Of a stretch of DNA of 64,000 nucleotides, positions 1,569-41,144 are shown in pieces. The DNA is from Thiofilum sp. (lineage in GTDB: Bacteria > Pseudomonadota > Gammaproteobacteria > Thiotrichales > Thiotrichaceae). Location: positions 2,321,401 through 2,385,400 of the forward strand of contig NZ_JADJTF010000001.1 of NCBI RefSeq assembly GCF_016711335.1, written 5' to 3'. The position numbers and the translations under genes were made by a program. Position 1 is the stretch's first letter, and each line of letters starts with the position of its first letter. Under the pieces are notes generated by a model. The model did no database searches. It worked only from the letters and a program-made list of their open reading frames with translations, and was not told the DNA's origin.

Positions 1569-1570
1569 AG

Positions 1571-2458
1571 GTGACTTTGCAGCTACAAGCAACTGAGCAC
1601 GGTTGGGCTGGCTATTTTCAGGCAATGGCTAGCCCTTGTATGATTTTACTAGAGCAAGCTCTGCCCTATGAGCAGGCTTATCAAAACCTAATGCACCTCG
1701 CTCAAGAGGTGTGGCGCATTGAGCATAAATATTCACGTTATCAATCTGATTCGGTATTAAGCCATATTAATCAAAATGCAGGTCAAGTGACGGCTATTGA
1801 TACTGAAACCTATCAACTCCTGTTTGTAGCTCAACTATTATGGCAATTAAGCGCGGGGCGTTTTGATGCTACCAGTGGCGTATTGCGTCGTGTGTGGCGC
1901 TTTAAGGGACAAAACTCTATCCCCACTCAAGAGCAAATTAATGAGCTATTGCCTTTTGTTGGCTGGGATAAGGTCAAATTAACTACCGAGCATATTAAGT
2001 TACAAAGGGGTATGCAGCTTGATTTAGGTGGGGTAGGGAAAGAGTACGCCGCAGATCGCTGTGCTCATTTAGCGGGTGAGTTAGGTTTAGACCATTGTTT
2101 AATCAATCTGGGGGGAGATATTGCTACTGATGGTCGACGTGCTAATGGCGAGGCGTGGCAGATTGGGATTGAAGATAGTCAGCAAGTGGGGAAAGTAGGG
2201 CAAACTGTACCGCTCTTGCAAGGCGGAATGGCTACCAGTGGTGATAGTTTTCGTTTTGTCGAAGTGGGGGGACAGCGTTATAGCCATATACTAGATGCAC
2301 GCACGGGCTGGCCTGTAACGGGTGCACCGCGCTCAGTCACAGTAGCTGCTCCTAATTGCACCGAGGCGGGCATGTTAAGCACTTTAGCGCTATTACATGA
2401 CGCAGCAGCAGAGCCTTTTTTAAAGCAAAGCGGGCGTCCCTTTTGGTTGCAGTGGTAG
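1571..2458 (+). CDS. apbE: ApbE-family FAD:protein FMN transferase
   Basis: 295-aa ORF with FQAMASPCMILLE (the ApbE F.AMGT..I motif), GGVGKEYAADR and later ATSGD motifs. Downstream of DUF3570. Confidence 0.7.
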   Translation: MTLQLQATEHGWAGYFQAMASPCMILLEQALPYEQAYQNLMHLAQEVWRIEHKYSRYQSDSVLSHINQNAGQVTAIDTETYQLLFVAQLLWQLSAGRFDATSGVLRRVWRFKGQNSIPTQEQINELLPFVGWDKVKLTTEHIKLQRGMQLDLGGVGKEYAADRCAHLAGELGLDHCLINLGGDIATDGRRANGEAWQIGIEDSQQVGKVGQTVPLLQGGMATSGDSFRFVEVGGQRYSHILDARTGWPVTGAPRSVTVAAPNCTEAGMLSTLALLHDAAAEPFLKQSGRPFWLQW

Positions 2459-2472
2459 CGCTTAGGATTGCT

Positions 2473-3009
2473 CTAAGATTGTTCTAAACAGGGATGCTCC
2501 GCATTAAAGGCTTTGACAGGTTTTTGCGGTAATTGATTGAGAGGCCAATGTTCTGGAAAGGTATAACCCTCACCACTGAGTTGTTTGCGTTCTTCCCAAA
2601 TCTTTTTACCGCGACTGGAAAAATAAATACGGTATTCATAGGTAGTATTATTCACTGCACTCGCTCGCACAAAGGCAAAGCGTAGACGGCTTTTGATGTC
2701 ATAATATAAATCAGTCTGTACCACCGAATCATCTGAGCCACCAGCAAAAGTATATAACTGTGCTATGCCTTGTGAGTTGCTATATAAATGGCGCTCACCG
2801 TCAGCGTGAGGTTGACAGTATTCAAAAATCCGACTTTTTTTATTAAGTTGTCCCGCCTGTTTAGCATTTTGAATACTATTAAAAATGCCACGTATGGTGA
2901 CAATATCAGGATGATTAAACCAATTATTAGCCGTAATAGGCTCCGCTTGAATAGTTAAGCTCAAGCTCATTAGCAACATACCGCCACTGATTACTGCTAA
3001 AGGTTTCAT
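2473..3009 (-). CDS. Secreted hypothetical protein
   Basis: 178-aa ORF with N-terminal signal peptide MKPLAVISGGMLLMSLSLTIQA. No recognisable domain. Confidence 0.5.
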   Translation of the reverse strand: MKPLAVISGGMLLMSLSLTIQAEPITANNWFNHPDIVTIRGIFNSIQNAKQAGQLNKKSRIFEYCQPHADGERHLYSNSQGIAQLYTFAGGSDDSVVQTDLYYDIKSRLRFAFVRASAVNNTTYEYRIYFSSRGKKIWEERKQLSGEGYTFPEHWPLNQLPQKPVKAFNAEHPCLEQS

Positions 3010-3019
3010 AGTGTCGTCT

Positions 3020-3361
3020 CTACGCTTTCTTCACAAACTCTGATTTTAATTGCATTGCGCCGATGCCTTCAATCTTGCAATCAATATTATGATCGCCTTC
3101 GACTAAACGAATATTTTTTACTTTAGTACCCACTTTCACTACTAAAGACGAGCCTTTGACTTTGAGATTTTTAATCACGGTCACGCTATCGCCATCTTGT
3201 AGGGGATTACCATTTGCATCAATCACTTGCAACGCTGCGTCACTGGTTTCAACCGGTGCGTCTTTTGACCATTCGTGTCCACATTCAGGGCAAATGTATT
3301 GATTGTTATCCTCGTAAGTATAGGTCGAGTGGCATTGAGGGCAGGGTGGAAAATCATTCAT
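3020..3361 (-). CDS. phnA: PhnA/YjdC-family zinc-ribbon protein
   Basis: Internal ATG at 3361 gives a 113-aa protein starting [31 protein letters not shown] followed by a C-terminal beta-domain, matching the PhnA-family hallmark. The longer ORF to 3457 adds a non-conserved leader. Confidence 0.75.
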
Positions 3362-3429
3362 CTTAAATCCTTCAGGGGCTAAAGCAGGCAAAAATGGGGC
3401 GAAGTGTAGCAGATAACTTGATTTAGACG

Positions 3430-3999
3430 TTAAAGAGTTTGTTGTCCTAAAATCCAAGGCAGTAATCTCGCCATATTACGCGCATCATCAATACCGCGAT
3501 GATGAGTGCCTTGTAGCGTTAGTCGCGCTAACCTTAGCGCATAATTCATCCCATACGCTTTAGGTAATTGCTGAGTGGTGGAAAAGAGCTTTTTAATATT
3601 TACATGCGGTGCGTCTATGGGAAAGGGTAACTGATGATACTCACTATCTTGTCTTAATTGGTTATAGTCGTAATCACCCCAAGAACAAAATACTATATTT
3701 TCATAAGGTTGCAACCAGTGCTGCAAGGTTTGAATCGCTTCAGGATAGGTGGGGGCGCTATCCACATCGGTTTGCTCAATCGTGGTTAAGGTGGTGCAAA
3801 ACGGTGTGAGAATCGGGTGGCGCATAGGCTTAATAAAGGTATTAAACTCAGCGACTATTTGTAAAGAGGAGGCGTCAACCATCACTGCACCGATCTCAAT
3901 GGTTTCCATCGCTTTGCGCGGCACAGTATTTTGATCGCAACAAGTGGCTTCTAAATCAATGATTAAGTAATAAGAATAGGGGGATAAAGGATGTGTCAT
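3430..3999 (-). CDS. DEDDh-type 3'-5' exonuclease domain protein
   Basis: 189-aa ORF with LIIDLEATC (Exo I motif), FCSWGDYD (Exo II) and [14 protein letters not shown] (Exo III with His), as in ERI-1/KapD-like exonucleases. Confidence 0.65.
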
Positions 4000-4250
4000 G
4001 TACGTTGTATGTGTTTACCTAGTTTATAATCTACGCTGGTTTGCCATGCATCTTGTTCTTGTGCGATTAAGGCAGGATTAGCATAGCGTTTTAAGCTACC
4101 TCGTAAACTTTTCTTATGAACAATAGTTGGCATAATTTTTTGGGGAGCTGTGAGTACAATAATTTCTACTTCTTGCCCCCAAAACTGTTTAGGTAGTTGG
4201 AGATGGATTTCTCCATTAGCTACGGTTTGAATGCTGCGTAGGGCTTCCAT
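3996..4250 (-). CDS. Small hypothetical protein, translationally coupled to the exonuclease
   Basis: 84-aa ORF whose stop overlaps the exonuclease start by 4 nt. Contains GEIHLQLPKQFWGQEVEIIVL, a swapped-hairpin/AbrB-like motif (inference). Confidence 0.35.
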   Translation of the reverse strand: MEALRSIQTVANGEIHLQLPKQFWGQEVEIIVLTAPQKIMPTIVHKKSLRGSLKRYANPALIAQEQDAWQTSVDYKLGKHIQRT

Positions 4251-4406
4251 TAAGCAATGCCTCTCTAGATAAGTTAGTGCAAGGATAGCATTATGAGTTC
4301 AAGATAGGAGTGATATTCTGAAAATAAGAATATCGGAATAGATACTAAAAAATACCCTGTAAAAATATGTAAAGCTATCCTTATCACTAATCAGCCAGTA
4401 TGGGCA

Positions 4407-4766
4407 TTAAGCGAGCGCTGCATTCACCTTTTGTAGGAATACATTTTCACGGCTATCTTCGCCATCGGCTTTGACGACCGCTTCAAGCATTTTGATACAG
4501 GAGTCTTTTAAATCAGTACCTTTAAAAAATGCACATTGAGTGGTAATAAAGGTATCAAAGGTGGTCTCGCTTTCAATAGCTTTACGGACTGAGGCGGTTT
4601 CGCGCATAGCGAATAAACCGATTTCTTTCATTGAGTCCCATTTCAGAGTATTGAGCAGCTTTTTAAACGCTTCTTCTTCGGCGAGTGATAGACGTTTATC
4701 TTGATAGCGTGCAGCGAGCATGAGTTTAACAAGTGCTTCGTTTTGAGCTTGAGTGAGTGTAGTCAT
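4407..4766 (-). CDS. TerB-like family protein
   Basis: 119-aa ORF with two halves carrying TerB-like motifs (LVKLMLAARYQDKRLSLAEEEAF and LEAVVKADGEDSRENVFLQKV). Confidence 0.4.
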   Translation of the reverse strand: MTTLTQAQNEALVKLMLAARYQDKRLSLAEEEAFKKLLNTLKWDSMKEIGLFAMRETASVRKAIESETTFDTFITTQCAFFKGTDLKDSCIKMLEAVVKADGEDSRENVFLQKVNAALA

Positions 4767-4844
4767 GATTCAGCATTAGCCCTTTATGGATGTGGCAAAA
4801 ATAACACACAATGTAGCTTTGCTTAGCTGAATCGCACCTTGACA

Positions 4845-5279
4845 TTAGGTAGCTTTTGGCAGGCGTTGAATATACTTATAGGAAACCCGTTCAAACCCTA
4901 AATGTTCATAAAAAGCCTGTGCATCAGCACGTTGCAGACCAGTGGTGAGTTCCAATACTTGACAATGTTGCTCTAGAGCCTTTTGTTGTGCCTGTGCCAT
5001 TAATGCTTTACCTATCCCCCACCCGCGCAGTGCTTGATCCACGACTAAGGTCATAATACGACAGTAGCGTTCTGCACTAGGTAAGTAATCAAAGTAAATT
5101 AAGCTCATGACCCCAACCACTTTATTATCTAATATGGCAACATAAATAGCGGGATCATGAGCGGGGTTTAATAGCGGTTTAAGTTTATCCGCAGGGGTTT
5201 GATAGCCTAGTTGAGCCAATAATAAGGAAATAGCGGTAGCATCTTTAAGAGTGGCGGTGCGAATTGATAGAGGCAGCAT
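4845..5279 (-). CDS. GNAT-family N-acetyltransferase
   Basis: Motif A RGWGIGKALM, beta-alpha acetyl-CoA fold pattern. Likely start is ATG at 5279 (MLPLSIRTATL); the ORF-track start at 5294 is a TTG. Confidence 0.8.
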   Translation of the reverse strand: MLPLSIRTATLKDATAISLLLAQLGYQTPADKLKPLLNPAHDPAIYVAILDNKVVGVMSLIYFDYLPSAERYCRIMTLVVDQALRGWGIGKALMAQAQQKALEQHCQVLELTTGLQRADAQAFYEHLGFERVSYKYIQRLPKAT

Positions 5280-5290
5280 GTTTTTAACGG

Positions 5291-5704
5291 TCAATACTTT
5301 TTATTCATATCTACAGTGAGCTTCGCAGAAGCTAACTCATCTTCATCAAAGGTAAAAGCCGATAAATTGATAATAAATTTTGTCAGTGGTATTTCTTTTG
5401 GAAGATCCATCTGCCAGACAAGATCAAAATCACCTTCTGGTTGAGGTAGTGGCTTGCCAATTTTGCCCAAAACTTCATTTAGATCATAGGTTTTCTTCCA
5501 AATACTAACCGAGCCAAGTTTTACTATGACATCTGCATAAGCACCTTCTTCCAGCGATCTTAAGAGACTACCTTGCAGTCTGCACTCAATCGTTTGTCCT
5601 GGATTAATACGAGTAGTTGAAACAGAAAACGAAGTAATTTTTAGCAACTCACAGGAGGCATCGCTAGTAATTGTATAAGACCAATTGCAAGTTTCTTGGG
5701 GCAT
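5291..5704 (-). CDS. Hypothetical protein, possible ML/MD-2-like beta-sandwich lipid-binding fold
   Basis: 137-aa ORF. Two Cys in the N-terminal region and spacing of hydrophobic strands reminiscent of ML-domain proteins (weak inference). Sits between the GNAT gene and a decayed copy of the GNAT 5' end. Confidence 0.4.
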   Translation of the reverse strand: MPQETCNWSYTITSDASCELLKITSFSVSTTRINPGQTIECRLQGSLLRSLEEGAYADVIVKLGSVSIWKKTYDLNEVLGKIGKPLPQPEGDFDLVWQMDLPKEIPLTKFIINLSAFTFDEDELASAKLTVDMNKKY

Positions 5705-5751
5705 AATAAAGTTCTTCAGGGGGGTGAAAAGCTTAAAAATATAACAAACCT

Positions 5752-5826
5752 TAGACCTTTACAAGTAGAGACTGGAAGGCGTCAGCGTCCTTAAAGGTAG
5801 TAGTGCGAATCGATAGAGGCAGCATA
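5752..5826 (-). pseudogene. Decayed duplicate of the GNAT 5' end (encodes MLPLSIRTTTFKDADAFQSLLVKV*)
   Basis: 5776..5817 aligns with 5239..5280. The core gtgcgaat(c/t)gatagaggcagcat is 24/25 identical. The translated stub parallels the GNAT N-terminus MLPLSIRTATLKDATAISLL. Confidence 0.6.
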
Positions 5827-5934
5827 AGATTAGTACTCATACACAGTGATCTCACTATAGTAGCAAAGTAATAGAGTCATTTTTAGGGATAGAGTACTTG
5901 TGTGAGCGCTATGTTTAATGCTACATAACGCTTT

Positions 5935-6279
5935 ATGAAACAGAGTCCTTATTTTTTACGCGGTCGTTTTTGGATTGAAAGCCCTACCGGAACCTTTCTA
6001 GGTCAGGGGCGTGTGGTGCTATTGGAGCATATTCGTACTTATGGTTCGATCAGTGCGGCGGCACGGGTGATGAATATGTCGTATCGTCAAGCATGGCAAT
6101 TAGTCAATACTATGAATAGTCATAGTACCGCGCCTTTGGTGGAAAGTGTGACCGGAGGTAAAGGTGGGGGTGGCGCTATATTAACCGCCACCGGTGAGCG
6201 AGCGATTAGTCTTTATTACGCGGTTAAACAAGATTTTGAGCAGTTTTTAGAGCAGCGTTCACAACAGTTAGACTGGTAA
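5935..6279 (+). CDS. ModE-like molybdate-responsive regulator, N-terminal wHTH domain only
   Basis: 114-aa protein with GSISAAARVMNMSYRQAWQLVNTMN (ModE N-terminal HTH signature) and GGKGGGGAILT. No C-terminal TOBE/Mop domains. Immediately upstream of modAB. Confidence 0.7.
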   Translation: MKQSPYFLRGRFWIESPTGTFLGQGRVVLLEHIRTYGSISAAARVMNMSYRQAWQLVNTMNSHSTAPLVESVTGGKGGGGAILTATGERAISLYYAVKQDFEQFLEQRSQQLDW

Positions 6280-6294
6280 AAAATTTTTGCTCTG

Positions 6295-6318
6295 CGCTAT
6301 ATAAATTTGGGAATAACG
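6295..6318 (+). promoter_or_regulatory. Putative ModE operator upstream of modA
   Basis: cgctatataaatttgggaataacg: imperfect dyad CGCTATAT...(rc)CGTTATT, resembling the ModE-box class CGnTATATA-N-TATATAnCG. About 26 nt upstream of the modA ATG. Confidence 0.3.
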
Positions 6319-6343
6319 TAACCTACTGAAAAGGAATTAATTA

Positions 6344-7135
6344 ATGAAAGTATTATCCTATGCTTTATTGGCACTTACGCTAGGTTTGAGTGCAGTGCAG
6401 GCGGCTGAGGTACAAGTCGCAGTTGCCTCTAATTTTACTAAGCCGATGGAAAAGATTGCTGAGGCGTTTAAAACCAAAACCGGACACGATGCTAAATTAT
6501 CCTTTGGTGCTTCGGGGGCATTTGTGACCCAAATTAAAAATGGTGCGCCGTTTGAAGTGTTTTTATCAGCGGATGATAAAAAAGCAGCGCCTCTAGTAGA
6601 GGAAAAGTTAGCGATTGCGGATACCGCCTTTATTTATGCCCAAGGTAAATTAGCGCTCTGGTCAGCACAGGATAAATTCGTCGATGATCAAGGTAAGGTT
6701 TTAGAAGGTGATACGTTTAAACATATCGCTATTGCTGATCCTAAACTAGCCCCCTATGGTACTGCGGCTATGCAGGTTCTGGATCAATTAAAGCTTACCG
6801 ATAAAGTGAAAGCTAAAATCGTTCAAGGTGAGAATATTGGTCAAACCATGCAATTTGTAAGTACAGGTAATGCCGAATTAGGGTTTGTCGCTTTGTCTCA
6901 AGTTATCGCTGAACCCTCACAAACAGGCTCAGTGTGGATAGTGCCAGACGACCTATATGCTCCGATTAATCAGCAAGCGGTATTACTCACCAAAGGCGAA
7001 AACAATGAAGCTGCTAAAGCCTTAATGGACTTTTTAAAGTCCAATGAAGCCGTTTCGATTATTGAAACCTTTGGCTATAAAGTACCTGCTACAGAAACAC
7101 CTAGCACTACAACGCCTGATGCTCCTAAGTCCTGA
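6344..7135 (+). CDS. modA: Molybdate ABC transporter substrate-binding protein ModA
   Basis: 263-aa ORF with signal peptide, SNFTKPMEKIAEAFK, SFGASGA and FLSADD motifs typical of ModA. Confidence 0.85.
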   Translation: MKVLSYALLALTLGLSAVQAAEVQVAVASNFTKPMEKIAEAFKTKTGHDAKLSFGASGAFVTQIKNGAPFEVFLSADDKKAAPLVEEKLAIADTAFIYAQGKLALWSAQDKFVDDQGKVLEGDTFKHIAIADPKLAPYGTAAMQVLDQLKLTDKVKAKIVQGENIGQTMQFVSTGNAELGFVALSQVIAEPSQTGSVWIVPDDLYAPINQQAVLLTKGENNEAAKALMDFLKSNEAVSIIETFGYKVPATETPSTTTPDAPKS

Positions 7136-7805
7136 GGATTGGTCGGCTATTGGGCTGACCTTACAGTTAGCCCTTGTCACCACTGTTATTTTATTAGTGA
7201 TGGGTACACCGATTGCATGGTGGTTAGCGACTACGCGCTCGCGTCTTAAAGTGCTAATCGGTTCAGTGGTGGCGTTGCCCTTGGTATTGCCGCCTACGGT
7301 ATTGGGCTTTTATTTATTAGTGTTTCTGAGTCCACAAAGTACCTTAGGGCAATGGATGCAAAGTATCGGGCTTAATACTTTGCCTTTTACCTTTGCGGGA
7401 ATGGTGGTGGCCTCAGTTATTTATTCCGCTCCTTTTGTGATTCAGCCCTTACAAAATGCGTTTGAAACGGTGAATCGTCATTATTTAGAGGTAGCCGCTA
7501 CGTTGGGCGCGTCTAAGCAGCGCACTTTTTGGCAGATTGTGTTGCCTTTGTCGCGGCATGGGATTTTAACCGCCTGTGTGTTGGGGTTTGCGCATACGGT
7601 GGGTGAGTTTGGGGTGGTACTCATGATCGGGGGTAATATTCCCGACCGTACTCGTGTGGTATCGATGCAAATTTATAATCATGTTGAGGCGCTCGAATAT
7701 GAGCAAGCGCATACCTTAGCGTTAGGTATGGTGATATTCGCCTTTGTGGTGCTAGTGATGATGTATTGGCTCAATCAATATACTGCGCCACGTAAGAAGT
7801 ATTGA
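7119..7805 (+). CDS. modB: Molybdate ABC transporter permease ModB
   Basis: ATG at 7119 (MLLSPEDWSAIGLTLQLA, typical ModB start) overlapping the modA end by 17 nt. The longer ORF from 7044 is also possible. Carries the EAA-like loop of ABC permeases. No modC follows. Confidence 0.8.
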   Translation: MLLSPEDWSAIGLTLQLALVTTVILLVMGTPIAWWLATTRSRLKVLIGSVVALPLVLPPTVLGFYLLVFLSPQSTLGQWMQSIGLNTLPFTFAGMVVASVIYSAPFVIQPLQNAFETVNRHYLEVAATLGASKQRTFWQIVLPLSRHGILTACVLGFAHTVGEFGVVLMIGGNIPDRTRVVSMQIYNHVEALEYEQAHTLALGMVIFAFVVLVMMYWLNQYTAPRKKY

Positions 7806-7833
7806 GAACTTTGCTTGATCGCCAAGCCTTTGC

Positions 7834-9831
7834 TCAGTCCCCTAATAAAGCGCTTAAGCTTGCTACATAAGCACTCGCTGTAGCTTGTCTTTGTTCGGGG
7901 GTAATGACTTTCTTATCTTGCCATTCAATATGTTCAGTCGGTAATTCATCTAAAAATCGGCTGGGATCACAGGTTTCTGTTTCACCGTATTTAGTGCGCG
8001 TTTTGGCATAGCTAATGGTTAAATGCTGCTGGGCGCGGGTGATGCCTACATAGGCTAAACGCCGCTCCTCTTGAATACCTTGCGCATCTTGGCTATTCAA
8101 ATGCGGTAGCGTGTCATCTTCCATACCCACTAAAAACACTTGAGGAAATTCTAGCCCTTTTGCAGCGTGCAATGTCATTAAAGTCACTGCATCTTGCTCG
8201 GCTTCCTCACTATTGCGCTCTAATAAATCCACTAAGCTCATATGAGCGACCATTTCGCTAATCGACTCTTTACCCTCACCATCGGCATAGAGTTTGTCCA
8301 TCCATTGCACGACTTCATGCACATTTTCCATACGCTTTTCAGCAATTTTGGGTGAATTGCTGCTTTCATGTAACCAATCCTCATAACGCAACTCGCCCAT
8401 TAAACGCTTCACCATTTCAGGAGGGGGCGTATTATCCGCATCACGACGTAATTGATTTACCCAGCCAGTAAAATTATCTAAGCGTTCTGAGGTTTTATTT
8501 CCCACCCGATCCGCAAAACCCATTTCTTGAGCAGCGGTAAATAAACTTACATGGCGTTGATGCGCATACTCACCTAACTTTTCTAAAGTGCTCGTACCTA
8601 TTTCGCGGCGCGGGGTATTAATTACGCGCAAAAAGGCTGTGTCATCATCGGGATTACTCAGTAGGCGCAAATAGGCTAGGGTATCTTTTACTTCAGTACG
8701 CTCAAAAAATGAAGTACCACCCGTTAATTTATATGGGATTTGATTTTCTCGTAAATACTTTTCAAATAGCCTACTTTGATGATTGCTTCGATATAAAATA
8801 GCAAAGTGTTTAAACGGTATTCGATCTCTAAAACGACGCTTTAGCATTTCGCCTATGATCATTTGTGCTTCATGATCAGCAGTACGACAAGGCATAATTA
8901 AAATCGGCTCACCTTCACCCAAAGTACTCCAAAGCTGTTTTTCAAATAGGTGTGGATTATTGCTAATGAGTTTATTGGCACTTTCTAAAATACGCTTAGT
9001 GGAGCGATAGTTTTGTTCTAGTTTAATTACTTGTAGTGTTGGATAGTCGCGTTGTAATTGAATAATATTTTCTGGACGTGCTCCGCGCCATGCATAAATC
9101 GATTGATCATCATCCCCCACTGCCGTAAATGCACCGCGAATACCCGCTAATTGTTTAACTAATTGATATTGGCAGGCATTAGTATCTTGATATTCATCCA
9201 CTAATAAATAGCGCAGTCTATTTTGCCATTTTTGTAGTACTTCAGGATGTTTCTGAAATAAGCGCACTGGTAAAACGATTAAATCATCGAAATCAACGGC
9301 ATTATAGGCTTTAATTTGGCGCTGATAGTGCTCATAAAGTTTAGCGGCTAATAATTCATCTTCATTAATGGCTTGCTGTAAAGCTTGTTCTGGATTAATA
9401 AAATTATTTTTCCAGCGTGAGATAGCATGACGAATACGCTCTACATCACCCGCTTCAAATTTTTCGGCTAATTCGACTAATACGGATTGGCTATCCTGTG
9501 CATCTAAAATACTAAAACCATTTTTATAGCCTAGACGTTTTACTTCTGATTTAAAAATCGAAAGTCCTAAGGTATGAAAGGTGGAAATGGTTAAGCCTTT
9601 ACCTTCACCTGCGCGTAGTAATTTACCAGCGCGTTCTTGCATTTCGCGTGCAGCTTTATTAGTAAAGGTAATCGCGGCAATACTTTTAGGATCGTAATTA
9701 GCTTGGCGAATGAGCCATGCAATTTTTTCGGTAATAACCCGCGTTTTGCCACTACCAGCTCCGGCTAGTACCAGTAAAGGTGAGCCTAAATGCGTTACCG
9801 CTTCGCGTTGTTGAGGATTTAAGCCAGTCAT
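7834..9831 (-). CDS. rep: ATP-dependent DNA helicase Rep (UvrD/Rep family SF1)
   Basis: Start ATG at 9831 (MTGLNPQQREAVTHLGSPLLVLAGAGSGKT, Walker A). Also DEYQDTN, QNYRST and TLHAAKGLEF motifs. The 665-aa length fits Rep better than UvrD. Confidence 0.75.
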   Translation of the reverse strand: MTGLNPQQREAVTHLGSPLLVLAGAGSGKTRVITEKIAWLIRQANYDPKSIAAITFTNKAAREMQERAGKLLRAGEGKGLTISTFHTLGLSIFKSEVKRLGYKNGFSILDAQDSQSVLVELAEKFEAGDVERIRHAISRWKNNFINPEQALQQAINEDELLAAKLYEHYQRQIKAYNAVDFDDLIVLPVRLFQKHPEVLQKWQNRLRYLLVDEYQDTNACQYQLVKQLAGIRGAFTAVGDDDQSIYAWRGARPENIIQLQRDYPTLQVIKLEQNYRSTKRILESANKLISNNPHLFEKQLWSTLGEGEPILIMPCRTADHEAQMIIGEMLKRRFRDRIPFKHFAILYRSNHQSRLFEKYLRENQIPYKLTGGTSFFERTEVKDTLAYLRLLSNPDDDTAFLRVINTPRREIGTSTLEKLGEYAHQRHVSLFTAAQEMGFADRVGNKTSERLDNFTGWVNQLRRDADNTPPPEMVKRLMGELRYEDWLHESSNSPKIAEKRMENVHEVVQWMDKLYADGEGKESISEMVAHMSLVDLLERNSEEAEQDAVTLMTLHAAKGLEFPQVFLVGMEDDTLPHLNSQDAQGIQEERRLAYVGITRAQQHLTISYAKTRTKYGETETCDPSRFLDELPTEHIEWQDKKVITPEQRQATASAYVASLSALLGD

Positions 9832-9847
9832 GTAATTGTTACCTATT

Positions 9848-10786
9848 TTACCGATGTGTCCACAAACCCAATAGCCAGTTTTTACCACTTACTAATAAAA
9901 TACCCAACAGCACTAAGGCAGCACCCATAATAAAATTAATTTCCAGCGGTTCATGCAAAATCAATACACCCGCTAAGACGCCAAACAGCGGAGTCATAAA
10001 AGAAAATACTCCCAATTGTGCGGCAACATATTTTTTAAGTAAGGCGAACCAAGTTAAATAGCTAAAAAAGGACACAATTACTACTTGAAAAGCTAAGCTA
10101 CTGAGCGCTACCGGAGTAGGGTTGAAGTGCCATTGTCCCAATAGCCCCGCAGTGGCTAAGATCATGATAGCGCTGATAGTGAGCTGATATTGTAGCGTCT
10201 GTGTGGCGGGTGCTTGGGCGAGTGTCGAGCAGCGCACGGTGACGGTGGTCGCCGCCCAACTCAGTCCAGCCCCTAAAGCGAGTATATCCCCCCAGAGTTG
10301 TTGAGGTAGTTGAGTCACAGTGGGCGTGTTTTTACCCAAAAATGCTAGAGCTAGACCAATAAAAGCCAAACCAATGCCGGCCCATTGCAATAAATGTAAA
10401 CGCTCGCTCGGCAGAGTCCAATGCAAAGCAAAGGCGACGAAAATAGGGGCGGTGTATAAGAAAACGACGGTATGGGAGGCGGTGGTATAGCGTAATGCTT
10501 CACCCACTAAAACAAATTCTAACCCAAAAAATAACCCTGCTAATACGCCGCCTCGCCAAGTGTCAGCGGTAATAAAACGTTCGCGCCTAACATACATCAC
10601 TAAACCCACTAATACCGCAGCTAACAAGGAGCGCAAGCCAATTTGAAAAGTAGGAGTGAGATCGGGTGCAGCGAGTTTGAGACTAATTTGTTGCCCGCCC
10701 CAAATCATACAAAGGAGTAGCATGGTTGCCATAGCTTGAGCGTCTAGTGAGCGGCGTGTATTCATCATGGTTAAAGTTAATAGCAC
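9848..10786 (-). CDS. DMT-superfamily (EamA-like) transporter
   Basis: 312-aa ORF with about 10 predicted TM helices and two EamA-like halves. Confidence 0.7.
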   Translation of the reverse strand: MLLTLTMMNTRRSLDAQAMATMLLLCMIWGGQQISLKLAAPDLTPTFQIGLRSLLAAVLVGLVMYVRRERFITADTWRGGVLAGLFFGLEFVLVGEALRYTTASHTVVFLYTAPIFVAFALHWTLPSERLHLLQWAGIGLAFIGLALAFLGKNTPTVTQLPQQLWGDILALGAGLSWAATTVTVRCSTLAQAPATQTLQYQLTISAIMILATAGLLGQWHFNPTPVALSSLAFQVVIVSFFSYLTWFALLKKYVAAQLGVFSFMTPLFGVLAGVLILHEPLEINFIMGAALVLLGILLVSGKNWLLGLWTHR

Positions 10787-10972
10787 AGTGAGTAGGCGGC
10801 GGATTGTAAACTAGGCGGTAGATTTTTGCTGCTGCCATTGTGATTTATAAGGCTTAGGCACTAACTCAGCCTCGATTCAGCATTGGTTAGGCAGTAGCTC
10901 AATATGGTATTACTATTCAGCTCGTTGTAAGCAGCTTATTGGTTGCATAAATAAAATAATTAGAGGCTTGGC

Positions 10973-12226
10973 ATGAAAACTATTGCGTCATTGACATCAT
11001 TTAAACGGATTACTACGTTAGCACTGTGTTCGAGCATGGGGTGGGGATTGATCTCCGTAGTAGAGGCTAATGAGCGCTTGCAGGAAATTGCACCCCCTTG
11101 GATGCAGCCCCAAACCGTCGCCCCCCAAATGGTCAGCACTCCAGCACCTGCTACCGCGGCGATTAATAATGTGCTGAAAGCGGCACAACAAGGACATCCA
11201 CGCGCTCAATATGATCTGGCTTTGATGTATCAGACAGGGCAAGGGGTGAAAAGCGACTTAAAGCAATCTACTTACTGGCTTAATCAAGCGGCTCAAGGGG
11301 GTGAGCCTGAGGCTCAATATTTATTAAGCCAATATTATCACCAAGGTACACTGGGTCGTGCGGATATAAAACGTGCTTTGCATTGGGCAACAGAAGCGGC
11401 TAAACGGGGGCATGTGGAAGCACAATATTGGCTGGGTGTGACTTATGTCAATGGGGATGGGGTAAGAGCGGATGTAGATCAAGGGCGCTATTGGCTCAAA
11501 CAGGCAGCACAACGGGGCTTCAAAGAGGCTCAAGTCGCTTTGCAATCAGTTGTAGCACCAGAAGCTCAAGCAGTAGTTTATAAGCGCCCACCTTCTTCAG
11601 CCTCGCCTGTAGAGTTAGCTTTAAATAGCCCTAATATTGAACCCACTACTCCACCTGATTATCCACCCGCTGCGGCTCCTATGCCTGTACAGTTACCAGA
11701 ACCTGATATGGAGGCTATGTTGGCTGCACCTAATACACCCATTCCATCAGCGATTCAGCGTCAAGTACAAGATCAAGCTGAGGCTAGTGGCGGGGCGCGG
11801 ATTAATCTGAATGGTATGAACCCCAATGATATTTTAGAGCTAGCCAATTCAGGGGATCGTTATGCACAGTTTTTGATTGGCGCTTTATACGAGGAAGGTT
11901 CAGGCGGCTTTAGTCAAAGCTATCGTGAGGCGGCGCGTTGGTATCGCAGGGCAGCACGGCAAAACTACCCAAAGGCACAATATAATTTAGCACTGATGTA
12001 TGAGGATGGACGTGGTGTAGAGCAGGATTATAAACAAGCAGGGCAATGGTATGCTCAAGCCGCTAAAGGTGGCTTTACTAAGGCCAAGAATAATTTAGGT
12101 ATTTTATATGTGACGGGGCGAGGGGTGCGCAAAGATCGCAAAACAGCCGAGTATTTATTCAAACAAGCCGCCCAAGAGGGAGATACCGATGCGGCTTATA
12201 ACTTATCACGCTTGGTGAAGGGGTAG
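10973..12226 (+). CDS. Sel1-repeat (TPR-like) protein, secreted
   Basis: Signal peptide, then at least 7 Sel1 repeats (AQYDLALMYQTGQGVKSD...; AQYNLALMYEDGRGVEQDYKQAGQWYAQAA) separated by a Pro-rich linker. Confidence 0.8.
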   Translation: MKTIASLTSFKRITTLALCSSMGWGLISVVEANERLQEIAPPWMQPQTVAPQMVSTPAPATAAINNVLKAAQQGHPRAQYDLALMYQTGQGVKSDLKQSTYWLNQAAQGGEPEAQYLLSQYYHQGTLGRADIKRALHWATEAAKRGHVEAQYWLGVTYVNGDGVRADVDQGRYWLKQAAQRGFKEAQVALQSVVAPEAQAVVYKRPPSSASPVELALNSPNIEPTTPPDYPPAAAPMPVQLPEPDMEAMLAAPNTPIPSAIQRQVQDQAEASGGARINLNGMNPNDILELANSGDRYAQFLIGALYEEGSGGFSQSYREAARWYRRAARQNYPKAQYNLALMYEDGRGVEQDYKQAGQWYAQAAKGGFTKAKNNLGILYVTGRGVRKDRKTAEYLFKQAAQEGDTDAAYNLSRLVKG

Positions 12227-12260
12227 TGGTTCCTTCTTAAAATCACGAGGTTACTTGGTA

Positions 12261-12308
12261 GTTAAACCCTAATATGTTTGAACTAAGTGTAAGTGGTTAG
12301 GGTTTAAC
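12261..12308. terminator. Possible bidirectional hairpin between convergent genes
   Basis: gttaaaccctaa (12261-12272) and ttagggtttaac (12297-12308) form a 12-bp stem with a 24-nt loop, between the Sel1 gene (+) and the 12304 ORF (-). The loop is long for a canonical terminator. Confidence 0.3.
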
Positions 12309-13300
12309 TGTTTTGTAATAGTTGGGCTAAATCAGAGCGTTTAATTTGGTTTAATGCAGTCGATAATTCACTTAGTTGCTGACGACATTCTAACCATTCC
12401 CATACGCCCTGAGGTTCTAACCCGTGTTTGAATCGGCGGCGATCAGCAACGGGAATTTCAAAAAGATCGGCTAATTTTATCCAGTCATCTTGCAAGCGTT
12501 CACATAGCTGTATTTTGGCTAAACCACTGTAGTTGAGTGTTTGTTGTACAGGGGAGTTTACCCCGATTTGAACCTCAATAACGGTTCGAGTCTGAGCAGC
12601 AATGACTTCATCTTCTTGAAAAGCACTGACCAATAAAGTTTTCTTACCGCACTCAGAACAAGTGACTTGAAAATACTTGGGTTCTGTGTTCTCACCACGT
12701 TTCAAAAGAAATACATAAAAAGGTGGAGTAATTTTACAGTTATCACCCGATGCTTCTACTCGGTAGCGAATGATAGTTTCACTTTCGGGACGGTAAACGT
12801 GTCCCAGTGCAGATTGAGCTTTGGGTAAGTCTGCTAATAGAGTGACAGGTGAATTTGGCTGTTTAATTGAAACAGCTAGGTCAAATGCCTTATTAATAAA
12901 AACTTGTTCTGGACTAGAAACATCTAAACGTATTTTTTCTTCGGGAAAGTGATAGTTATTTTTTATAAATTTATTTGCTTTCTGTGATCCTTTGAACTTA
13001 TTAAATAGCCAAGAGATAGGGCTGATTGAGACTTGCATAATAGCAGAAATAATACTATGGGAAGGTGTGGTGGGATTTTGAATAGTAATAGCATCAAATT
13101 TTGTACCTTGATTTATAGAGATTTCCTCAGAGGAAGCAGCATTAGAACTAATGAGCTCCGTAGATTCCTTAATAAGATCAGCAGATTCCTTTAATGGGGG
13201 GTTTTCACTTCGAGCTTGAATGAGTGTTTTCTCAGTCTCAGCAATGATCGCCTCCAAACGCATTTTTTCCTCAACGCGAGTTTCTAAATCATAGCTTTTA
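12304..13300 (-). pseudogene. 3' portion (about 329 aa) of a TIR-domain gene split by an IS insertion: coiled coil, unknown middle domain, C-terminal helical EAD/death-like region
   Basis: The reading frame continues seamlessly from the TIR ORF at 14573..15202 once the IS and one copy of the target duplication are removed (...LRALYKS|YDLETRVEEKMRLEAIIAE...). The ORF-track start at 13311 is a GTG inside the IS inverted repeat. Confidence 0.7.
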
Positions 13301-14572
13301 TCTCTGTACACGACAAAACCACTAACTTATTGATTTAGCATGTTTGTCATGGAGATGGTGAAAGTCCACCGCTCCTATGTTTTACTCTCTAGTTACCACA
13401 CAGGAGAGCAAAATGGATCTGAGCGATGGACTACGTGACAGTTTAAAAGCCCACTTGAGTTGGGGCAAGCCCCGTTTGGATTGTTTTGTGGGAATGCTGC
13501 ATACTTTGCTGAGTGCGCGACAAATGAATTTGGCGTTGTTGGCGGTACACATAGATTCTGACACCGACATTGGTTCCCGCTATCGACGGATGCAACGCTT
13601 TTTTAGCCAAGTGTTCTTTAATTACAATGACATTGCCCATTTTCTTATGGGAATGTTCGCCTTTAGTGGTCAACAATACTACCTCACACTCGACAGAACC
13701 AACTGGAAATGGGGCAAATCCAACCTCAATCTCCTGACTTTGGCGGTTGTTTACCAAGGTGCGGCTATCCCCGTTTACTGGATGGTGTTGAACAAACGCG
13801 GTAATTCTAACCAACGTGAACGTATTGCCCTGCTGCAACGATTTATCAGCCAATTCGGGCGCAACAACATCTTGGGTGTGTTGGCTGACCGTGAGTTTAT
13901 TGGTGGTCAATGGTGGAAGTGGTTGTCTTCCAAAGAGATTCCCTACTTGATTCGTATCAAGGGTAATCAGTTGATGACCGACAAACACAAAAAAGAGGCG
14001 CATGTCCGCTCGCTGTTTGCCAACCTCAAGCCGGGTAAACGGCGCGTTCTCCGTCACCGTCGCGACGTTAGCGGGGAATGGGTTTGGCTCAGTGGCTCAA
14101 AGCTGCCCAGTGGTGAGTTGTTGATTATCGCCAGCAACCACTACACGGCTGATCCCATTGGCACTTATCGGCTACGTTGGGAAATTGAAAACCTGTTCCA
14201 ATGCTTGAAAGGGCGTGGTTTTCACATGGAAGCCACTCACTTCACCAAACCCCTCGCATCAAAAAGATGATGGCGTTGCTTGCCATTGGCTTCTGTTGGG
14301 CGCACAAAGTCGGCGAATGGAAGGAAAAAGCCGTCAAGCCTTTGAAGACGAAAAAACATGGACGCAAAGAGCAAAGTGTCTTCCGTTACGGCTTGGACTA
14401 CTTGACCGATTTATTGAATGGAAGGGTACGGGAAAAAGTGGATAGGCTTAGGCTGCTGCTTCTGTTCCTTTGTCCACCACAATTCATGGCGATCGAGGAT
14501 GGACGGATGAAACTCAGGCGATTTTCTTTTGAAAAAGATTCAATGAGTTAAGCGAATTGTCGTGTACAGAGA
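13301..14572 (+). mobile_element. IS4-family insertion sequence (1272 bp) with terminal inverted repeats and a 7-bp target-site duplication
   Basis: Perfect 16-bp terminal inverted repeats tctctgtacacgacaa (13301-13316; reverse complement of 14557-14572), extendable to about 26 bp with mismatches. Flanking direct repeat gctttta at 13294-13300 and 14573-14579. Internal transposase has the Y(2)R(3)E(6)K motif. Confidence 0.85.
13377..14551 (+). CDS. IS4-family DDE transposase (split into two frames by a 1-nt indel at the C4 run 14250-14253)
   Basis: ORFs 13377..14270 and 14201..14551 are consecutive parts of one transposase: LADREF (DDE Asp region) and YRLRWEIENLFQCLK (IS4 Y-2-R-3-E-6-K signature). 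Adding one C in cccc restores ...THFTKPPRIKKMMALLAIGFCWAH... Confidence 0.8.
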
Positions 14573-15202
14573 GCTTTTATATAGAGCACGTAGTTTTTCT
14601 TCGAGCCGTGCTCGGCGCTCAGCATTGATGCTAGTCAGTGCACTAGAGCTATTAGGTGCTGGCGGTGGTGAAGTGTTGTTTTGATTAAGAGTGCTGCTAG
14701 AAGTATTGCCTAAAGGTGGGAGTACTTTTTTCGAGCCTAATGGTGGTGGTATATAAGCAGGTTGTTTAGTCAAATAGCGGTATAAATTATCGTAATCATC
14801 GGGTAGGCGGTAACAGTTATAGGCTTTCAAAGGCAACGGAACATGATCTAGGTTGCCCTCATGTGGAATCACCGGAATAAATTTATCGTTACTCTGAAAC
14901 GCATCATATAAAGTTTGTGAAATCACCACACCTTCAAAACTTACACCTCGACCCTTTTCTAAGTCCTGCCCACGATAGCGCTGCAAATAAATCGGGGTAC
15001 ACATCAGCAAAACAAAATCAGCCGTTTCAATCTGCTGCTCCATCCATTTAATCCAACCTTCACGGGGTGAGCCATTAAGGTATTGATCAATTAAAGCCTC
15101 AATGCCATCCGTGCGTAACTGATCCGCAATAGAGCGCACAAAATCACGGTGAGCTGGTGAGTCATGGCTGTAACTAATGAATACTTTGGGGCTAACAGTC
15201 AT
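14573..15202 (-). pseudogene. 5' portion of the IS-split gene: TIR domain plus Pro/Ser-rich linker
   Basis: KVFISYSHDSPAHRDFVRSIADQL is the bacterial TIR hallmark FISYSHD, followed by a linker PPPLGSKKVLPPLGNTSSSTLNQNNTSPPPAPNSSS. The current ORF ends with 10 IS-encoded codons (SLYTTIRLTH*). Confidence 0.75.
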
Positions 15203-20132: not shown

Positions 20133-21938
20133 GTGGACTGGTCTGAATTGCACTTTTTATATCCTTGGTGGCTGGTGTTATTAGTAGCACTCCCTTTAGT
20201 GTTATGGCTGATCTATGCGCCTAAACAAACGCAATGGCAACACTGGATCGATGACAAACTAGCGCCCTTTGTGCTCACTGGAAAAATGGCAGAGTCACAA
20301 CGCTGGTCACTAATACTATTAGGTTTAGCTTGGGTATTAGCGGTAGTAGCTTTAGCGGGTCCTACTTGGCAAAAGCGTGAAGTACCCGTGTATAACAATC
20401 CGCATGCGTTAGTGATTGGTTTAGATTTGTCTATTTCGATGTGGGCTAAAGATGTAGCGCCAGATCGCCTGAATCAAGCCCGTTTTAAAATATTAGATAT
20501 TTTAAAGCAGCGCAAAGACGGACAAACCGCTTTGATTGTGTTCGCAGGTGATGCGTTTGTGGTAACACCTCTGACGACTGATACCGTCACTATTGCGGAA
20601 CAAATTAAAAATTTAACGCCCGATATTATGCCCGCATTAGGTAGTCGTTTTGCCCCTGCCATTACCCAAGCGCAGCAATTACTCACTCAAGCCAATGCGC
20701 AACAAGGCGATATTTTATTAGTGACGGATGGCGTTGATGATGCAGCACTGGCTGTAGAGGCAGCACAAGTCGCACGAAGTGCAGGTTTTATGGTATCCAC
20801 TTTAGCGATAGGCACTGAAAAGGGCGCACCTATTCCTATTCCGAATCAAAGTTTTCTTAAAGATGATCAAGGTCGCACCGTCATGGCTGAAGTCAATAAA
20901 ACGGCCATTGCAGCAGTCGCTACGGCAGGACAAGGTTTAGCCTTAGAAACCACGATTAATGATAGTGAAATTGCGCAACTACAAGCTTTCTGGGAGCAGC
21001 ATATTCAAGCTCAAGCGCCGCAATTACAAAATCAACAGGTAGAAGTTTGGTTAAATGCAGGCTATTGGTTTCTGATTCCACTCATTCCATTAGTGTTGGG
21101 TATTTTTAGGCGTGGTTGGCTAGTGCTAGCGGTGGCTTTGCTACTAAGTGCTCGTCCAGAACCAGTGTTGGCTGTGGAATTGGCGCATTTATTTCAAACG
21201 CCAGATCAACAGGCGATGCAAGCCATGCAGCAGCAGGATTTTAAACAAGCCGAGCAACAGTTCGAGCGTCCCGATTGGAAAGCTGCCGCAGCCTATGAAG
21301 GAAAAAATTGGGCAGCAGCAGAGCAATATTATAAAAACCAGACTGCGCTTACAGATCGCTATAATTATGCTAATGCTCTAGCCAAGCAAGGTAAGCTGCA
21401 AGAAGCCTTAAATGCTTATGATCAAGTATTAAACCAAGATCCTCAACATCAGGATGCACTGTATAATCGTAAAGTGGTTGAGGACGAGTTAAAAAAACAG
21501 CAACAAGCCCAGCAAAATCAACAACAGAATCAGAACCAACAAGAACAGCAGCAAAACCAAAACTCATCACAGTCCTCTGACCCTCAATCAGGTGCATCTG
21601 ATCAACAGCAGAATCAAAACGCGGAGCAAGCCGGAGACAGTCAAGGGCAAAGCGACCAACAGCCTAAATCTCAAGACCCAGCCGCAGCTAAGGACACCCA
21701 ACCAGAGGCTGCTGAACCAGAGCCAAAAGAGACGCGACCAGAGTCACAACAGTCACCTAATACCGCTCAGACTAATAGTGCTCCTACACCCGAATCCAGT
21801 GAGCAAAGTCGCGAGCAACAACAAGCGACCGAGCAATGGTTGAGACGGATTCCCGATGATCCGGCAGAATTATGGCGACGTAAGTTTTTATATCAATATC
21901 AACAGCGTGCTCCACAACAGCAGGGTTCACAATGGTAA
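20133..21938 (+). CDS. batB: VWA plus TPR protein BatB-like with a long Q/N/acidic low-complexity tail
   Basis: TM helices, VWA MIDAS (LVIGLDLSISM ... VTDGVDD), TPR-like segment (ALAKQGKLQEALNAYDQVLNQDPQHQDALYNRK), then about 150 aa of QQNQQQNQNQQEQQQ, acidic and Pro-rich sequence. Confidence 0.8.
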   Translation: MDWSELHFLYPWWLVLLVALPLVLWLIYAPKQTQWQHWIDDKLAPFVLTGKMAESQRWSLILLGLAWVLAVVALAGPTWQKREVPVYNNPHALVIGLDLSISMWAKDVAPDRLNQARFKILDILKQRKDGQTALIVFAGDAFVVTPLTTDTVTIAEQIKNLTPDIMPALGSRFAPAITQAQQLLTQANAQQGDILLVTDGVDDAALAVEAAQVARSAGFMVSTLAIGTEKGAPIPIPNQSFLKDDQGRTVMAEVNKTAIAAVATAGQGLALETTINDSEIAQLQAFWEQHIQAQAPQLQNQQVEVWLNAGYWFLIPLIPLVLGIFRRGWLVLAVALLLSARPEPVLAVELAHLFQTPDQQAMQAMQQQDFKQAEQQFERPDWKAAAAYEGKNWAAAEQYYKNQTALTDRYNYANALAKQGKLQEALNAYDQVLNQDPQHQDALYNRKVVEDELKKQQQAQQNQQQNQNQQEQQQNQNSSQSSDPQSGASDQQQNQNAEQAGDSQGQSDQQPKSQDPAAAKDTQPEAAEPEPKETRPESQQSPNTAQTNSAPTPESSEQSREQQQATEQWLRRIPDDPAELWRRKFLYQYQQRAPQQQGSQW

Positions 21939-23667
21939 AGCGTATTATAATAGTTAGCTTATTATGGCTAATGATGGTTAATCTGAGTTGGGCGACGGTC
22001 AGTAGTAGTGTCGATCAAACGGAATTGACTTATGGAGATGCGTTACAACTCACCATTACCGCCAACCACGGTACAGGGGTTGCGCCTGATTTGTCGGTGC
22101 TGAATGATGATTTTGAAATTGCCTCGCAGCGCCATGAAAGCCAGTTTAGTTTAATTAATGGGACTAGCTCGCAAACCTCACGCTGGATTTTATCTCTCTA
22201 TCCACGCAAGTCTGGAAAATTAGTGATTCCCGCTATTACGGTGGGAGCAGAAATAACAGATCCGATTGTGCTCACCATTAATGACGATACTACCCCCAAC
22301 AGCACTAATAATGATAAAGGCAAATCTACCTCAGCGGATGTGTTAATCGAATTTGAAATAGAGCCAAAAAATCCACTAGTACAGCAGCAAATTATTTTAA
22401 CTCAGCGCTTATTAGCGAGTGTGCGTCTGGATAATACCCAAGCTTCCTTAACGCTACCACAAATTGAGCAGGGTAAAGGTCTAGTACGCCAACTCGGTTC
22501 ACCCACAGCGCATAATAGGGTAATACAAGGTAAGCGCTATGATGTAATTGAACGTAAATTTGCTTTAATGTCCCAGCAAAGTGGCACTTTAACCATTGGG
22601 CGTACTATTTTTGATGGGGTGATTCCAGATGCTAATGCTAATAATGACCCATTAGGACACTATTTTGCTTTTAGTTTGGGGGGGAAGAGCGTCCGGCGTT
22701 TTTCTAAACCGTTTGATATTACCATCGCCCCACAAGATCCGAATTACACCGGACAATATTGGTTACCCGCTAAAAATATTAGTTTAAATGCTTCATGGGA
22801 TAAACCTTTAGATCAGCTCAAAGCGGGTGAACCAGTCACCTTAACCATTGCGATTATGGCGGAAGGTTTAGCGGCAGAGCAGTTACCTGCATTGACTATT
22901 CCAGTGCCAGTAGGTATGAAGGCATATAGTGATCAGCCCTTATTCAATGACCAAGTGCGCGACGATGGAGTGATTGGTATTCGTCAGGAGAAATGGGTAT
23001 TTATAGCCTCTGGTGGTGGAGAGTTTACCATTCCTGAAATTACTTTGGATTGGTGGAATACTAAAACACAACAGCAAGAATTGGCGCGTTTAGATGCTAC
23101 ACAATTTAAAGTAGGGGGCGAACCTTTGGTTGTGAATACTCCCGATCCTGCTACAGTCGCCAAACCTGAACCTCAACATAGCGCCCAGCTCCCTAGCGCA
23201 CAACCCTCAAGCGACACCAGACCTCAACACACTATGCCTTGGTGGTTGTGGGCGGTTTTATTAGTGTTAATGGGGGAGTGATTGCAGCACTTGCCTATCG
23301 CCGAGGTAAGTATAAGGCTCAGTCTATGAGTAGTATGCAGGAAAGCTTGCAGCGCGGTAGTTTAAATCAACTCATTAGCGCCTGCGCTCAACATGATAAA
23401 CAAGGGGCGCAATTAGGCTTAACCGCATGGGCACGAGATGTCTTAGCTGTGCCGAGTCCGCAATGGGTGAATCTGCGTGCCATAGCCACCCCTGAATTAA
23501 AAGCAGCTATGGATAGTTTAGAGCAAGCCCTGTATAGCAAAGACGCCTCCAGCAAAAAGTGGGATGGATCAGCACTGATCAAAGCCGTAAAAGCCTTTAA
23601 ATATCCACTGAATCGGCATGAGACAACAACGCATTTGATGCCTTTATATCCTTTAGCAGATAAATAA
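21932..23667 (+). CDS. batD: BatD-family protein (reading frame broken at the G5 run 23272-23276; full length about 591 aa if one G is added)
   Basis: ORFs 21932..23281 and 23239..23667 are consecutive. With G6 the TM helix reads PWWLWAVLLVLMGGVIAALAYRRGKYK (a classic stop-transfer) followed by the usual BatD cytoplasmic tail. Confidence 0.7.
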
Positions 23668-40867: not shown

Positions 40868-41037
40868 GGGGTTTACCTGAGTAGTTTATTATTATGGTTG
40901 ATTCAACCGTAAAGAAATTTATTATTTATTTTTATATGAAGCTAATTTTTCTGTATTAACGGTTGGTTTAGAGTGCTCCTTCTAAGGTGTAGGTAAAAGC
41001 TCGTTTTAGGTTATGTTGACATTTAATAAGCTCAAAT

Positions 41038-41137: not shown

Positions 41138-41144
41138 GCCATTC

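Follow-up and report, generated by a model that had tools for sequence, protein, structure and literature searches.

Structure and family of the insertion sequence

The window analysed here, a 64,000-nt stretch of the genome of a Thiofilum species, carries an insertion sequence (IS) of the IS4 family at 13301–14572 on the plus strand, with a length of 1272 bp in the present sequence that would become 1273 bp on restoration of the C discussed below. The element is bounded by 16-nt terminal inverted repeats read from the sequence, the left one (TCTCTGTACACGACAA, 13301–13316, plus strand) having its reverse complement in the right one (TTGTCGTGTACAGAGA, 14557–14572, plus strand), and is flanked by a 7-bp target-site duplication, GCTTTTA, with a left copy at 13294–13300 and a right copy at 14573–14579. 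It interrupts a minus-strand SEFIR/TIR-bDLD3 gene, of which the N-terminal part with the SEFIR/TIR domain lies at 14580–15202 and the C-terminal part with the bDLD3 domain at 12304–13300; removal of the IS together with one GCTTTTA copy in silico restores an open reading frame (ORF) of 539 aa. No further copies of the IS were found within the 64-kb window. A scan of genome contigs with a 26-mer from the IS, in a collection outside which the source genome falls, returned a single locus (L006) on a contig of Ca. Thiothrix namsaraevi, which carries an IS that is 97% identical at the nucleotide level from end to end, while scans of metagenome contigs with two patterns bridging the C-run of the transposase gene (with a gap of N{3,7}) gave no match.

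The transposase, once its reading frame is repaired, scores 243.6 bits against the NCBIfam model NF033591 (transpos_IS4_2, an IS4 equivalog with a curated cutoff of 152 bits) over residues 39–345, an alignment that spans the repaired junction, and the transposase also matches the Pfam domain DDE_Tnp_1 (PF01609, E = 2.9e-16). The signature of the IS4 family is Y-(2)-R-(3)-E-(6)-K, and this can be read in the translation around the catalytic E as YRLRWEIENLFQCLK. The IS is an ordinary IS4-family element. The intact target duplication, the many identical copies and the insertion into the SEFIR/TIR-bDLD3 gene together suggest recent activity. The element is most likely intact and would encode one DDE transposase of 379 aa.

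The break in the transposase gene

As written, the transposase is encoded in two overlapping plus-strand frames. The upstream frame (frame A) occupies 13413–14270 and corresponds as annotated to 285 aa, identical to RefSeq WP_296837415.1 (P0124); its alternative starts at 13377 and 13413 give 297 and 285 aa respectively, and it terminates at 14270 with ...EATHFTKPLASKR (HFTKPLASKR). The second frame (frame B), which is −1 relative to frame A, is open from 14189 and reads ...PRIKKMMALLAIGF... until 14551, and its downstream portion from RIKKMMALL to the stop (14254–14551) includes RefSeq WP_296835791.1 (P0350). The addition of one C at the C4 run at 14250–14253 on the plus strand, where C5 would be expected, produces a 379-aa transposase starting from the Met at 13413, and this repaired protein is 100% identical to an intact 379-aa transposase, P0001, whose recorded contig is also that of the fragments.

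The position of the break can be narrowed by comparison with homologues. From an alignment of the best 120 matches, the 115 of at least 340 aa, taken as full length, were used. All of these are encoded by a single ORF and all 115 present the stretch E.T..T..RIKKMMALL without a gap, the R and both K residues each being conserved in 114 and the I in 105 of the 115. Because E.T..TK is read in frame A and RIKK in frame B only, and because the homologues are gapless here, the missing base must fall within two codons, CCCC(C)T. The related IS of L006 reads AAACCCCCTCGC at this site and thus has C5, and the intact proteins P0001 and P0348 read KPPRIKK at the junction. From these comparisons we infer that C5 is truly present at 14250–14253 in this copy of the IS. 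The preliminary description of the window had placed the transposase lesion at the same cccc run and proposed its repair by one C, which the homologue alignment, the C5 of L006 and the identity to P0001 all bear out.

Copies of the element elsewhere in the genome

For the Thiofilum species there are 14 different transposase sequences in RefSeq, which were compared at the protein level with the intact 379-aa P0348 as the reference. All 14 agree with P0348 at every in-frame residue save residues 30–32, with no other substitution, and the remaining differences are frameshifts. At least seven terminate in ...TKPLASKR*, which is the C4 state of the window, while at least four shift at ...KHKK|RRMSARC..., where an A6 run has been called as A5, and one shifts at ...VSG|GMGLAQW..., where a G4 run has been called as G5. 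The corresponding A6 (13989–13994) and G4 (14073–14076) runs, both on the plus strand, are correct in the window copy. Three of the 14 sequences begin at Met38, just past residues 30–32. The largest contig of the metagenome-assembled genome (MAG) JADJTF01 is the recorded location of P0124 and of the other transposase fragments; the intact P0348 is also found in Logan assemblies, and for the frameshifted fragments and those ending in KPLASKR the NCBI record is the sole source.

Residues 30–32 form a second suspect site. The window copy has CATACT (His-Thr) at 13500–13505 on the plus strand where the L006 relative has CTGGCC, so that the surrounding hotspot at 13497–13508 reads CTG CAT ACT TTG in the window and CTG CTG GCC TTG in L006, and the intact, Logan-supported transposase protein has Gln-Ala at this patch. 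Across the copies of the same genome, residues 30–32 appear as HT, QL, QA, QD or HAF. When the HT and QA states are crossed with the C5 and C4 states, all four combinations are found (P0001, P0124, P0348 and P0130), as they are when A6 and A5 take the place of C5 and C4. That all combinations occur on otherwise identical backgrounds implies that the changes recur independently, since one defective master copy would not yield them all, and the lack among the IS copies of the scattered substitutions expected from real decay speaks against decay. A comparison with other copies of the IS had been suggested beforehand; made here with protein sequences, it located breaks at other homopolymers (A6 and G4) and one hotspot of the GGCC type.

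The batD and wbpB loci

Two other genes in the window are broken in a comparable manner. The batD gene (21932–23667, plus strand) is split into ORFs of 449 aa (21932–23281) and 142 aa (23239–23667), which match the Pfam families BatD and DUF7939, in place of an intact protein of 578 aa. The break maps to a G5 run at 23272–23276 on the plus strand. At this point a G6 run is present in both GCA_049643105.1 and the Logan assembly of SRR28062878, which encode a 578-aa BatD, and the addition of one G to the window gives a protein identical to theirs, as had been proposed for this ggggg run from the window alone. GCA_049643105.1 may derive from SRR28062878, in which case the BatD comparison would rest on one dataset. 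On the basis of these sequences, batD is most likely a functional gene in the organism.

The second gene is of the wbpB/wlbA type, encoding a UDP-GlcNAcA 3-dehydrogenase of the Gfo/Idh/MocA group (62770–63836, minus strand; 350/355 aa when intact). In the window it is represented by minus-strand ORFs of 237 aa (63123–63836) and 115 aa (62770–63117), which match the N- and C-terminal GFO_IDH_MocA domains of Pfam and correspond to RefSeq WP_296841562.1 (P0255, 232 aa) and WP_296841561.1 (P0256, 115 aa). One additional base restores the frame, and the PDB homologues 3q2i and 3q2k are gapless across the repaired junction. The lesion itself is a complex patch at 63124–63128 on the minus strand, where the window allele is GGGTACTAGG and the intact allele GGGGCCTTAGG, the latter aligning with GGGTAC-TAGG in the window. 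On the coding strand the intact gene reads AATGGGGCCTTAGGT and the window AATGGGTAC-TAGGT, which amounts to two substitutions and one deletion in 5 nt. The intact gene is found in GCA_049643105.1 (L013) and in Logan SRR28060518 (L014), which agree with each other in reading AAT GGG GCC TTA GGT (NGALG), and outside the 5-nt patch over GGCC the 1.7 kb compared around wbpB is identical.

The preliminary description was thus correct that wbpB is broken and that one added base restores its frame, but the lesion is no homopolymer indel: the CCC of the ggg/ccc run that it had placed near 63130–63135 is at 63129–63131, with the lesion beside it, and the restored junction, given as ...NGVLGSM, has an A in P0253 and P0254 where V was proposed, the true junction being RWRNGALGSM. 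The statement that three out of three lesions fall at homopolymers therefore holds for the transposase and BatD and fails for WbpB, where a complex miscall over GGCC is found instead.

Intact WbpB is also recorded on the JADJTF01 contig that is given for the transposase fragments, as MBK8451887.1 (P0254, 355 aa) and WP_296836385.1 (350 aa); the window may therefore represent a smaller contig of the MAG, a duplicated region or another version of the sequence. The contigs of other assemblies branch at 62319–62445, beside the wbpB site, probably owing to strain variation in the polysaccharide cluster. A wbpD-like ORF is located at 62192–62767. As for batD, the sequences point to wbpB being most likely a functional gene in the organism.

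Comparison with other assemblies

The stretch within which a single indel would repair the frame measures 82 nt for the transposase, 85 nt for BatD and 49 nt for WbpB, and since a homopolymer could be chosen by eye in each of these, an outside test was needed. The comparison set comprised GCA_049643105.1, GCA_049293595.1 and the Logan assemblies of SRR28062878 and SRR28060518, all from samples other than that of the window. These four assemblies span 973–13425 and 14445–64000 and so account for 62,009 bases of the window's 64,000, the interior of the IS (13426–14444) being outside. Over these 62,009 bp there are zero substitutions outside two discrepant loci, the batD G-run and the wbpB patch, and both of these break the gene in the window, with both genes being intact elsewhere. 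The compared part contains 57 C/G runs of at least 5 nt, of which one is discordant. Taken together, the homologues and assemblies pin two of the three lesions to runs with a true length of at least 5 nt, and such runs make up 0.48% of the window. Three overlapping ORF pairs (6344/7044, 7834/9848 and 45285/45839) that were considered as possible frameshifts are identical in the other assemblies and represent separate neighbouring genes.

At both ends of the IS the contigs of the other assemblies stop 28–128 nt into the element, with coverage ceasing 125–128 nt in. This shows that the insertion is real and shared, and that the element is repeated in the genome and fragments those assemblies. 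From these breaks at the IS the comparison assemblies appear to be of the short-read de Bruijn type.

Origin of the assembly and candidate error motifs

The window belongs to the Thiofilum MAG Hade_18-Q3-R52-61_MAXAC.390 (JADJTF01, JADJTF000000000; g__Thiofilum), which consists of eight contigs (Singleton et al., 2021, Supplementary Data 3, PMC8012365) and comes from the Haderslev sample of BioProject PRJNA629478; the RefSeq entries P0124, P0255 and P0256 for Thiofilum sp. match its broken transposase and WbpB ORFs exactly. The MAG has a coverage of 84x with Nanopore and 40x with Illumina reads and a polymorphic rate of 1.6e-4, and was produced by a pipeline in which assembly with CANU was followed by Racon, two rounds of medaka and one round of Racon with Illumina reads (PMC8012365). 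Errors in Oxford Nanopore (ONT) consensus sequences are dominated by two classes, one tied to methylation motifs and the other to homopolymer length (Wick et al., 2019, PMC6591954), and assemblies from R9.4.1 data require short-read polishing against frameshifting homopolymer indels (Sereika et al., 2022, PMC9262707).

The IS hotspot and the wbpB patch have in common a GGCC(TT) core in the relative or the intact gene and TAC(T) in the window. Of the palindromic tetramers, none is avoided in the window as strongly as GGCC, which occurs 35 times where trinucleotide frequencies predict 153 (observed/expected 0.23, against 0.72 for the tetramer that ranks second). Such avoidance is the usual footprint of restriction-modification, from which methylation of GGCC, and miscalling at the motif, may be inferred; judged by the avoidance of the motif alone, GGCC is probably methylated in the organism.

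Interpretation of the frameshifts

In our view the three frameshifts are very probably residual consensus errors of an R9-era Nanopore metagenome assembly rather than mutations. Two classes of error would account for them: the under-calling of C/G homopolymers, by which C5 would become C4 in the transposase gene and G6 would become G5 in batD, and the misreading of GGCC as TAC(T), in some cases together with an indel, at the wbpB patch and at transposase codons 30–31, the motif being probably methylated. Polishing with Illumina reads would have cleaned nearly all of the single-copy sequence, leaving about two loci per 62 kb, and contig branching beside wbpB may have disturbed polishing there. 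The IS copies would have retained their errors because short reads map ambiguously to a multi-copy repeat and short-read polishing works poorly in it; the two suspect sites within the 1.27 kb of the IS are roughly 50-fold denser than the residual loci in single-copy sequence. The errors are confined to the multi-copy IS and two isolated single-copy sites, and the pattern of indels described earlier as window-wide was to this extent overstated, with exactly two discrepant loci in 62 kb outside the IS. The underlying proposal of sequencing or assembly error in place of pseudogenisation gains support from the other assemblies, the Nanopore origin of the MAG and the intact IS copies, and that of a probably intact transposase from the identical intact transposases on the same contig, one of which is also present in Logan. 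The frameshift pattern belongs to a known class of artefact and is no biological feature.

Some observations sit less easily with consensus error and, with one exception, are shared with the unlikely reading in which the frameshifts are real, so that the IS of the window would be a defective, non-autonomous element mobilized in trans by a few intact copies, and batD and wbpB would be recent pseudogenes of the strain. The G5 run and the wbpB patch are both single-copy and outlasted polishing with 40x Illumina coverage, which calls for a special explanation; the comparison assemblies are from other samples, so that a real strain difference at batD is conceivable; and the C4 state is common to at least seven annotated fragments, as if a defective copy had been propagated. 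Strand slippage at homopolymers is, in addition, a natural mutational hotspot. The exception, on which this reading does not draw, is the intact WbpB (MBK8451887.1) recorded on the same MAG contig. Against real mutation, there is not one substitution in 62 kb and yet both differences are gene-breaking, and the IS copies lack substitutions beyond one hotspot while displaying three homopolymer frameshifts in all combinations with that hotspot, a pattern that descent would not give and that requires identical changes to have recurred. The wbpB lesion, moreover, comprises three changes in 5 nt over GGCC, and frameshifted transposase fragments occur in NCBI only while the intact form also occurs in Logan. 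A variant in which the C4/C5 and A5/A6 states are real, with most IS4 copies switched off and slippage acting as a reversible throttle on transposition, and in which the batD G5 is a true strain-specific loss, seems to us quite unlikely.

Phase variation or heterogeneity of the population, whereby slippage in C/G tracts would toggle the transposase and BatD and the assembly would have caught the OFF state, would fit the location of both single-base lesions in C/G tracts and the differing tract states among the IS copies. The tracts of known contingency loci are longer than the 5–6 nt seen here, however, the polymorphism of the MAG is very low (1.6e-4), both of the other assemblies that cover batD have G6, and the wbpB patch and GGCC hotspot would be left unexplained; we therefore regard this as very unlikely. 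The chance that the two overlapping ORFs yield a full-length transposase by an IS1- or IS3-like mechanism, through transcriptional slippage or a programmed −1 ribosomal frameshift, is close to negligible. Such a mechanism is brought to mind by the −1 register of the downstream frame and by the A-rich TCA AAA AGA TGA just before the frame-A stop, but the overlap (14189–14270) holds only A AAA AGA and no X XXY YYZ heptamer, and the invariant RIKK, which is in frame B, lies upstream of the A-stretch, where a slip would give LASKK. All 115 full-length homologues are single ORFs, gapless at the site, and intact single-ORF copies encoding an identical protein share their recorded contig with the fragments.

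Among the RefSeq entries for the Thiofilum genome, no fewer than 12 fragments of the transposase and two of WbpB are probably artefacts. Because of such fragments pseudogenes are overcounted, protein clusters are divided and an active IS appears to be decaying, and in counts of pseudogenes or IS decay from R9-era Nanopore MAGs homopolymers and candidate methylation motifs should be masked, especially in repeats. The main value of the analysis is this caution on data quality and not biology, the hint of GGCC modification in the organism being a small by-product.

Comparison with known systems

The element resembles other members of the IS4 family in having a single DDE transposase of about 379 aa with the YREK signature, a length of 1.27 kb, inverted repeats of about 16 nt, a flanking direct repeat and several copies per genome. 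It differs in its target-site duplication of 7 bp, as most members of the family generate duplications of 9–12 bp, and in that the copy as written is frameshifted, which we attribute to error. With the programmed −1 frameshifting of the IS1/IS3 type the locus shares two overlapping ORFs, the second of which is in the −1 frame, but unlike those systems it has no slippery heptamer, the two-ORF layout is present in none of the 115 homologues and the conserved residues fall in the wrong frame. The closest parallel is with the consensus errors of R9.4.1 assemblies. The motif garbled here is GGCC, while the papers on such errors describe Dcm or Dam motifs (PMC6591954, PMC9262707). In other respects the two are alike, with single-base deletions (here in C5 and G6 runs) accompanied by a garbled short palindromic motif, and with ORFs that are broken despite full-length homologues, errors that survive limited polishing and a concentration of the errors in a repeat.

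The gene interrupted by the insertion sequence

The IS4-family element splits a minus-strand gene into two parts (12304-13300 and 14580-15202), and excising the IS together with either of the two 7-bp duplication copies restores a 539-aa ORF. The encoded product, a candidate conflict or immunity protein, has a SEFIR/TIR domain at its N terminus and a bacterial Death-like domain 3 (bDLD3) at its C terminus. GCA_049643105.1, GCA_049293595.1 and Logan SRR28060518 all share the insertion in this gene; a version of the site lacking the IS was not found.

The polysaccharide gene cluster and WbpB

Contigs of other assemblies stop, or overlap by ~127 nt, at 41722/41723 and 62319-62445, and these two break points flank the polysaccharide (O-antigen-like) gene cluster. 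Two Uma2-family genes (41145-41744 and 44365-44970) have repeats of 88-90% identity in common (41033-41142 vs 44201-44970). The cluster region may be a strain-variable cassette. Elsewhere in the window, the gene for a 1003-aa Wzz/GNVR chain-length regulator contains two tandem 87-nt units that are 78% identical (37252-37425).

Intact forms of the dehydrogenase WbpB are on record as P0254 (MBK8451887.1) and P0253 (WP_296836385.1), the same as the WbpB of the window except at the lesion, and the intact gene is recorded on a 4,015,836-bp contig which also bears transposase fragments. The broken halves (WP_296841561/2) also stand as RefSeq proteins of the species. The MAG may hold two copies of the WbpB region, or the window may represent a different contig or version. 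A minus-strand ORF of 525 aa (60306-61883) combines a PIN_3 domain match with a DegT/aminotransferase domain; a frameshift artefact can be dismissed here because other assemblies also call a single gene, and the ORF may be a real fusion or have an over-extended start.

Transposase variants and GGCC avoidance

A related IS on contig JBEUIR010000413.1 of Ca. Thiothrix namsaraevi is one T short towards the 3' end of its transposase gene (locus L006, 1819-1877; GAAAAAGA-TCAATGAG), which alters the final transposase residues. The protein record P0260 ends in ...FEKIQ, consistent with the same change in other records.

Among same-species copies of the IS, transposase residues 30-32 read HT, QL, QA, QD or HAF, with the rest of the sequence identical. 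The variable spot lies at codons 29-33 (13497-13511), a stretch in which the window has CATACT while the 97% identical relative has CTGGCC. The spot resembles a hotspot of base-calling error at a GGCC site; the His-Thr of the window transposase is therefore probably wrong too, the true residues being Gln-Ala as in P0348, an intact transposase of the same species.

Over the whole window GGCC is itself strongly avoided (35 sites where trinucleotide frequencies predict 153, an observed/expected ratio of 0.23), the next most avoided palindromic tetramer having a ratio of 0.72, and CCWGG is likewise rare (7 sites). This scarcity suggests a restriction-modification system of the HaeIII type in this lineage.
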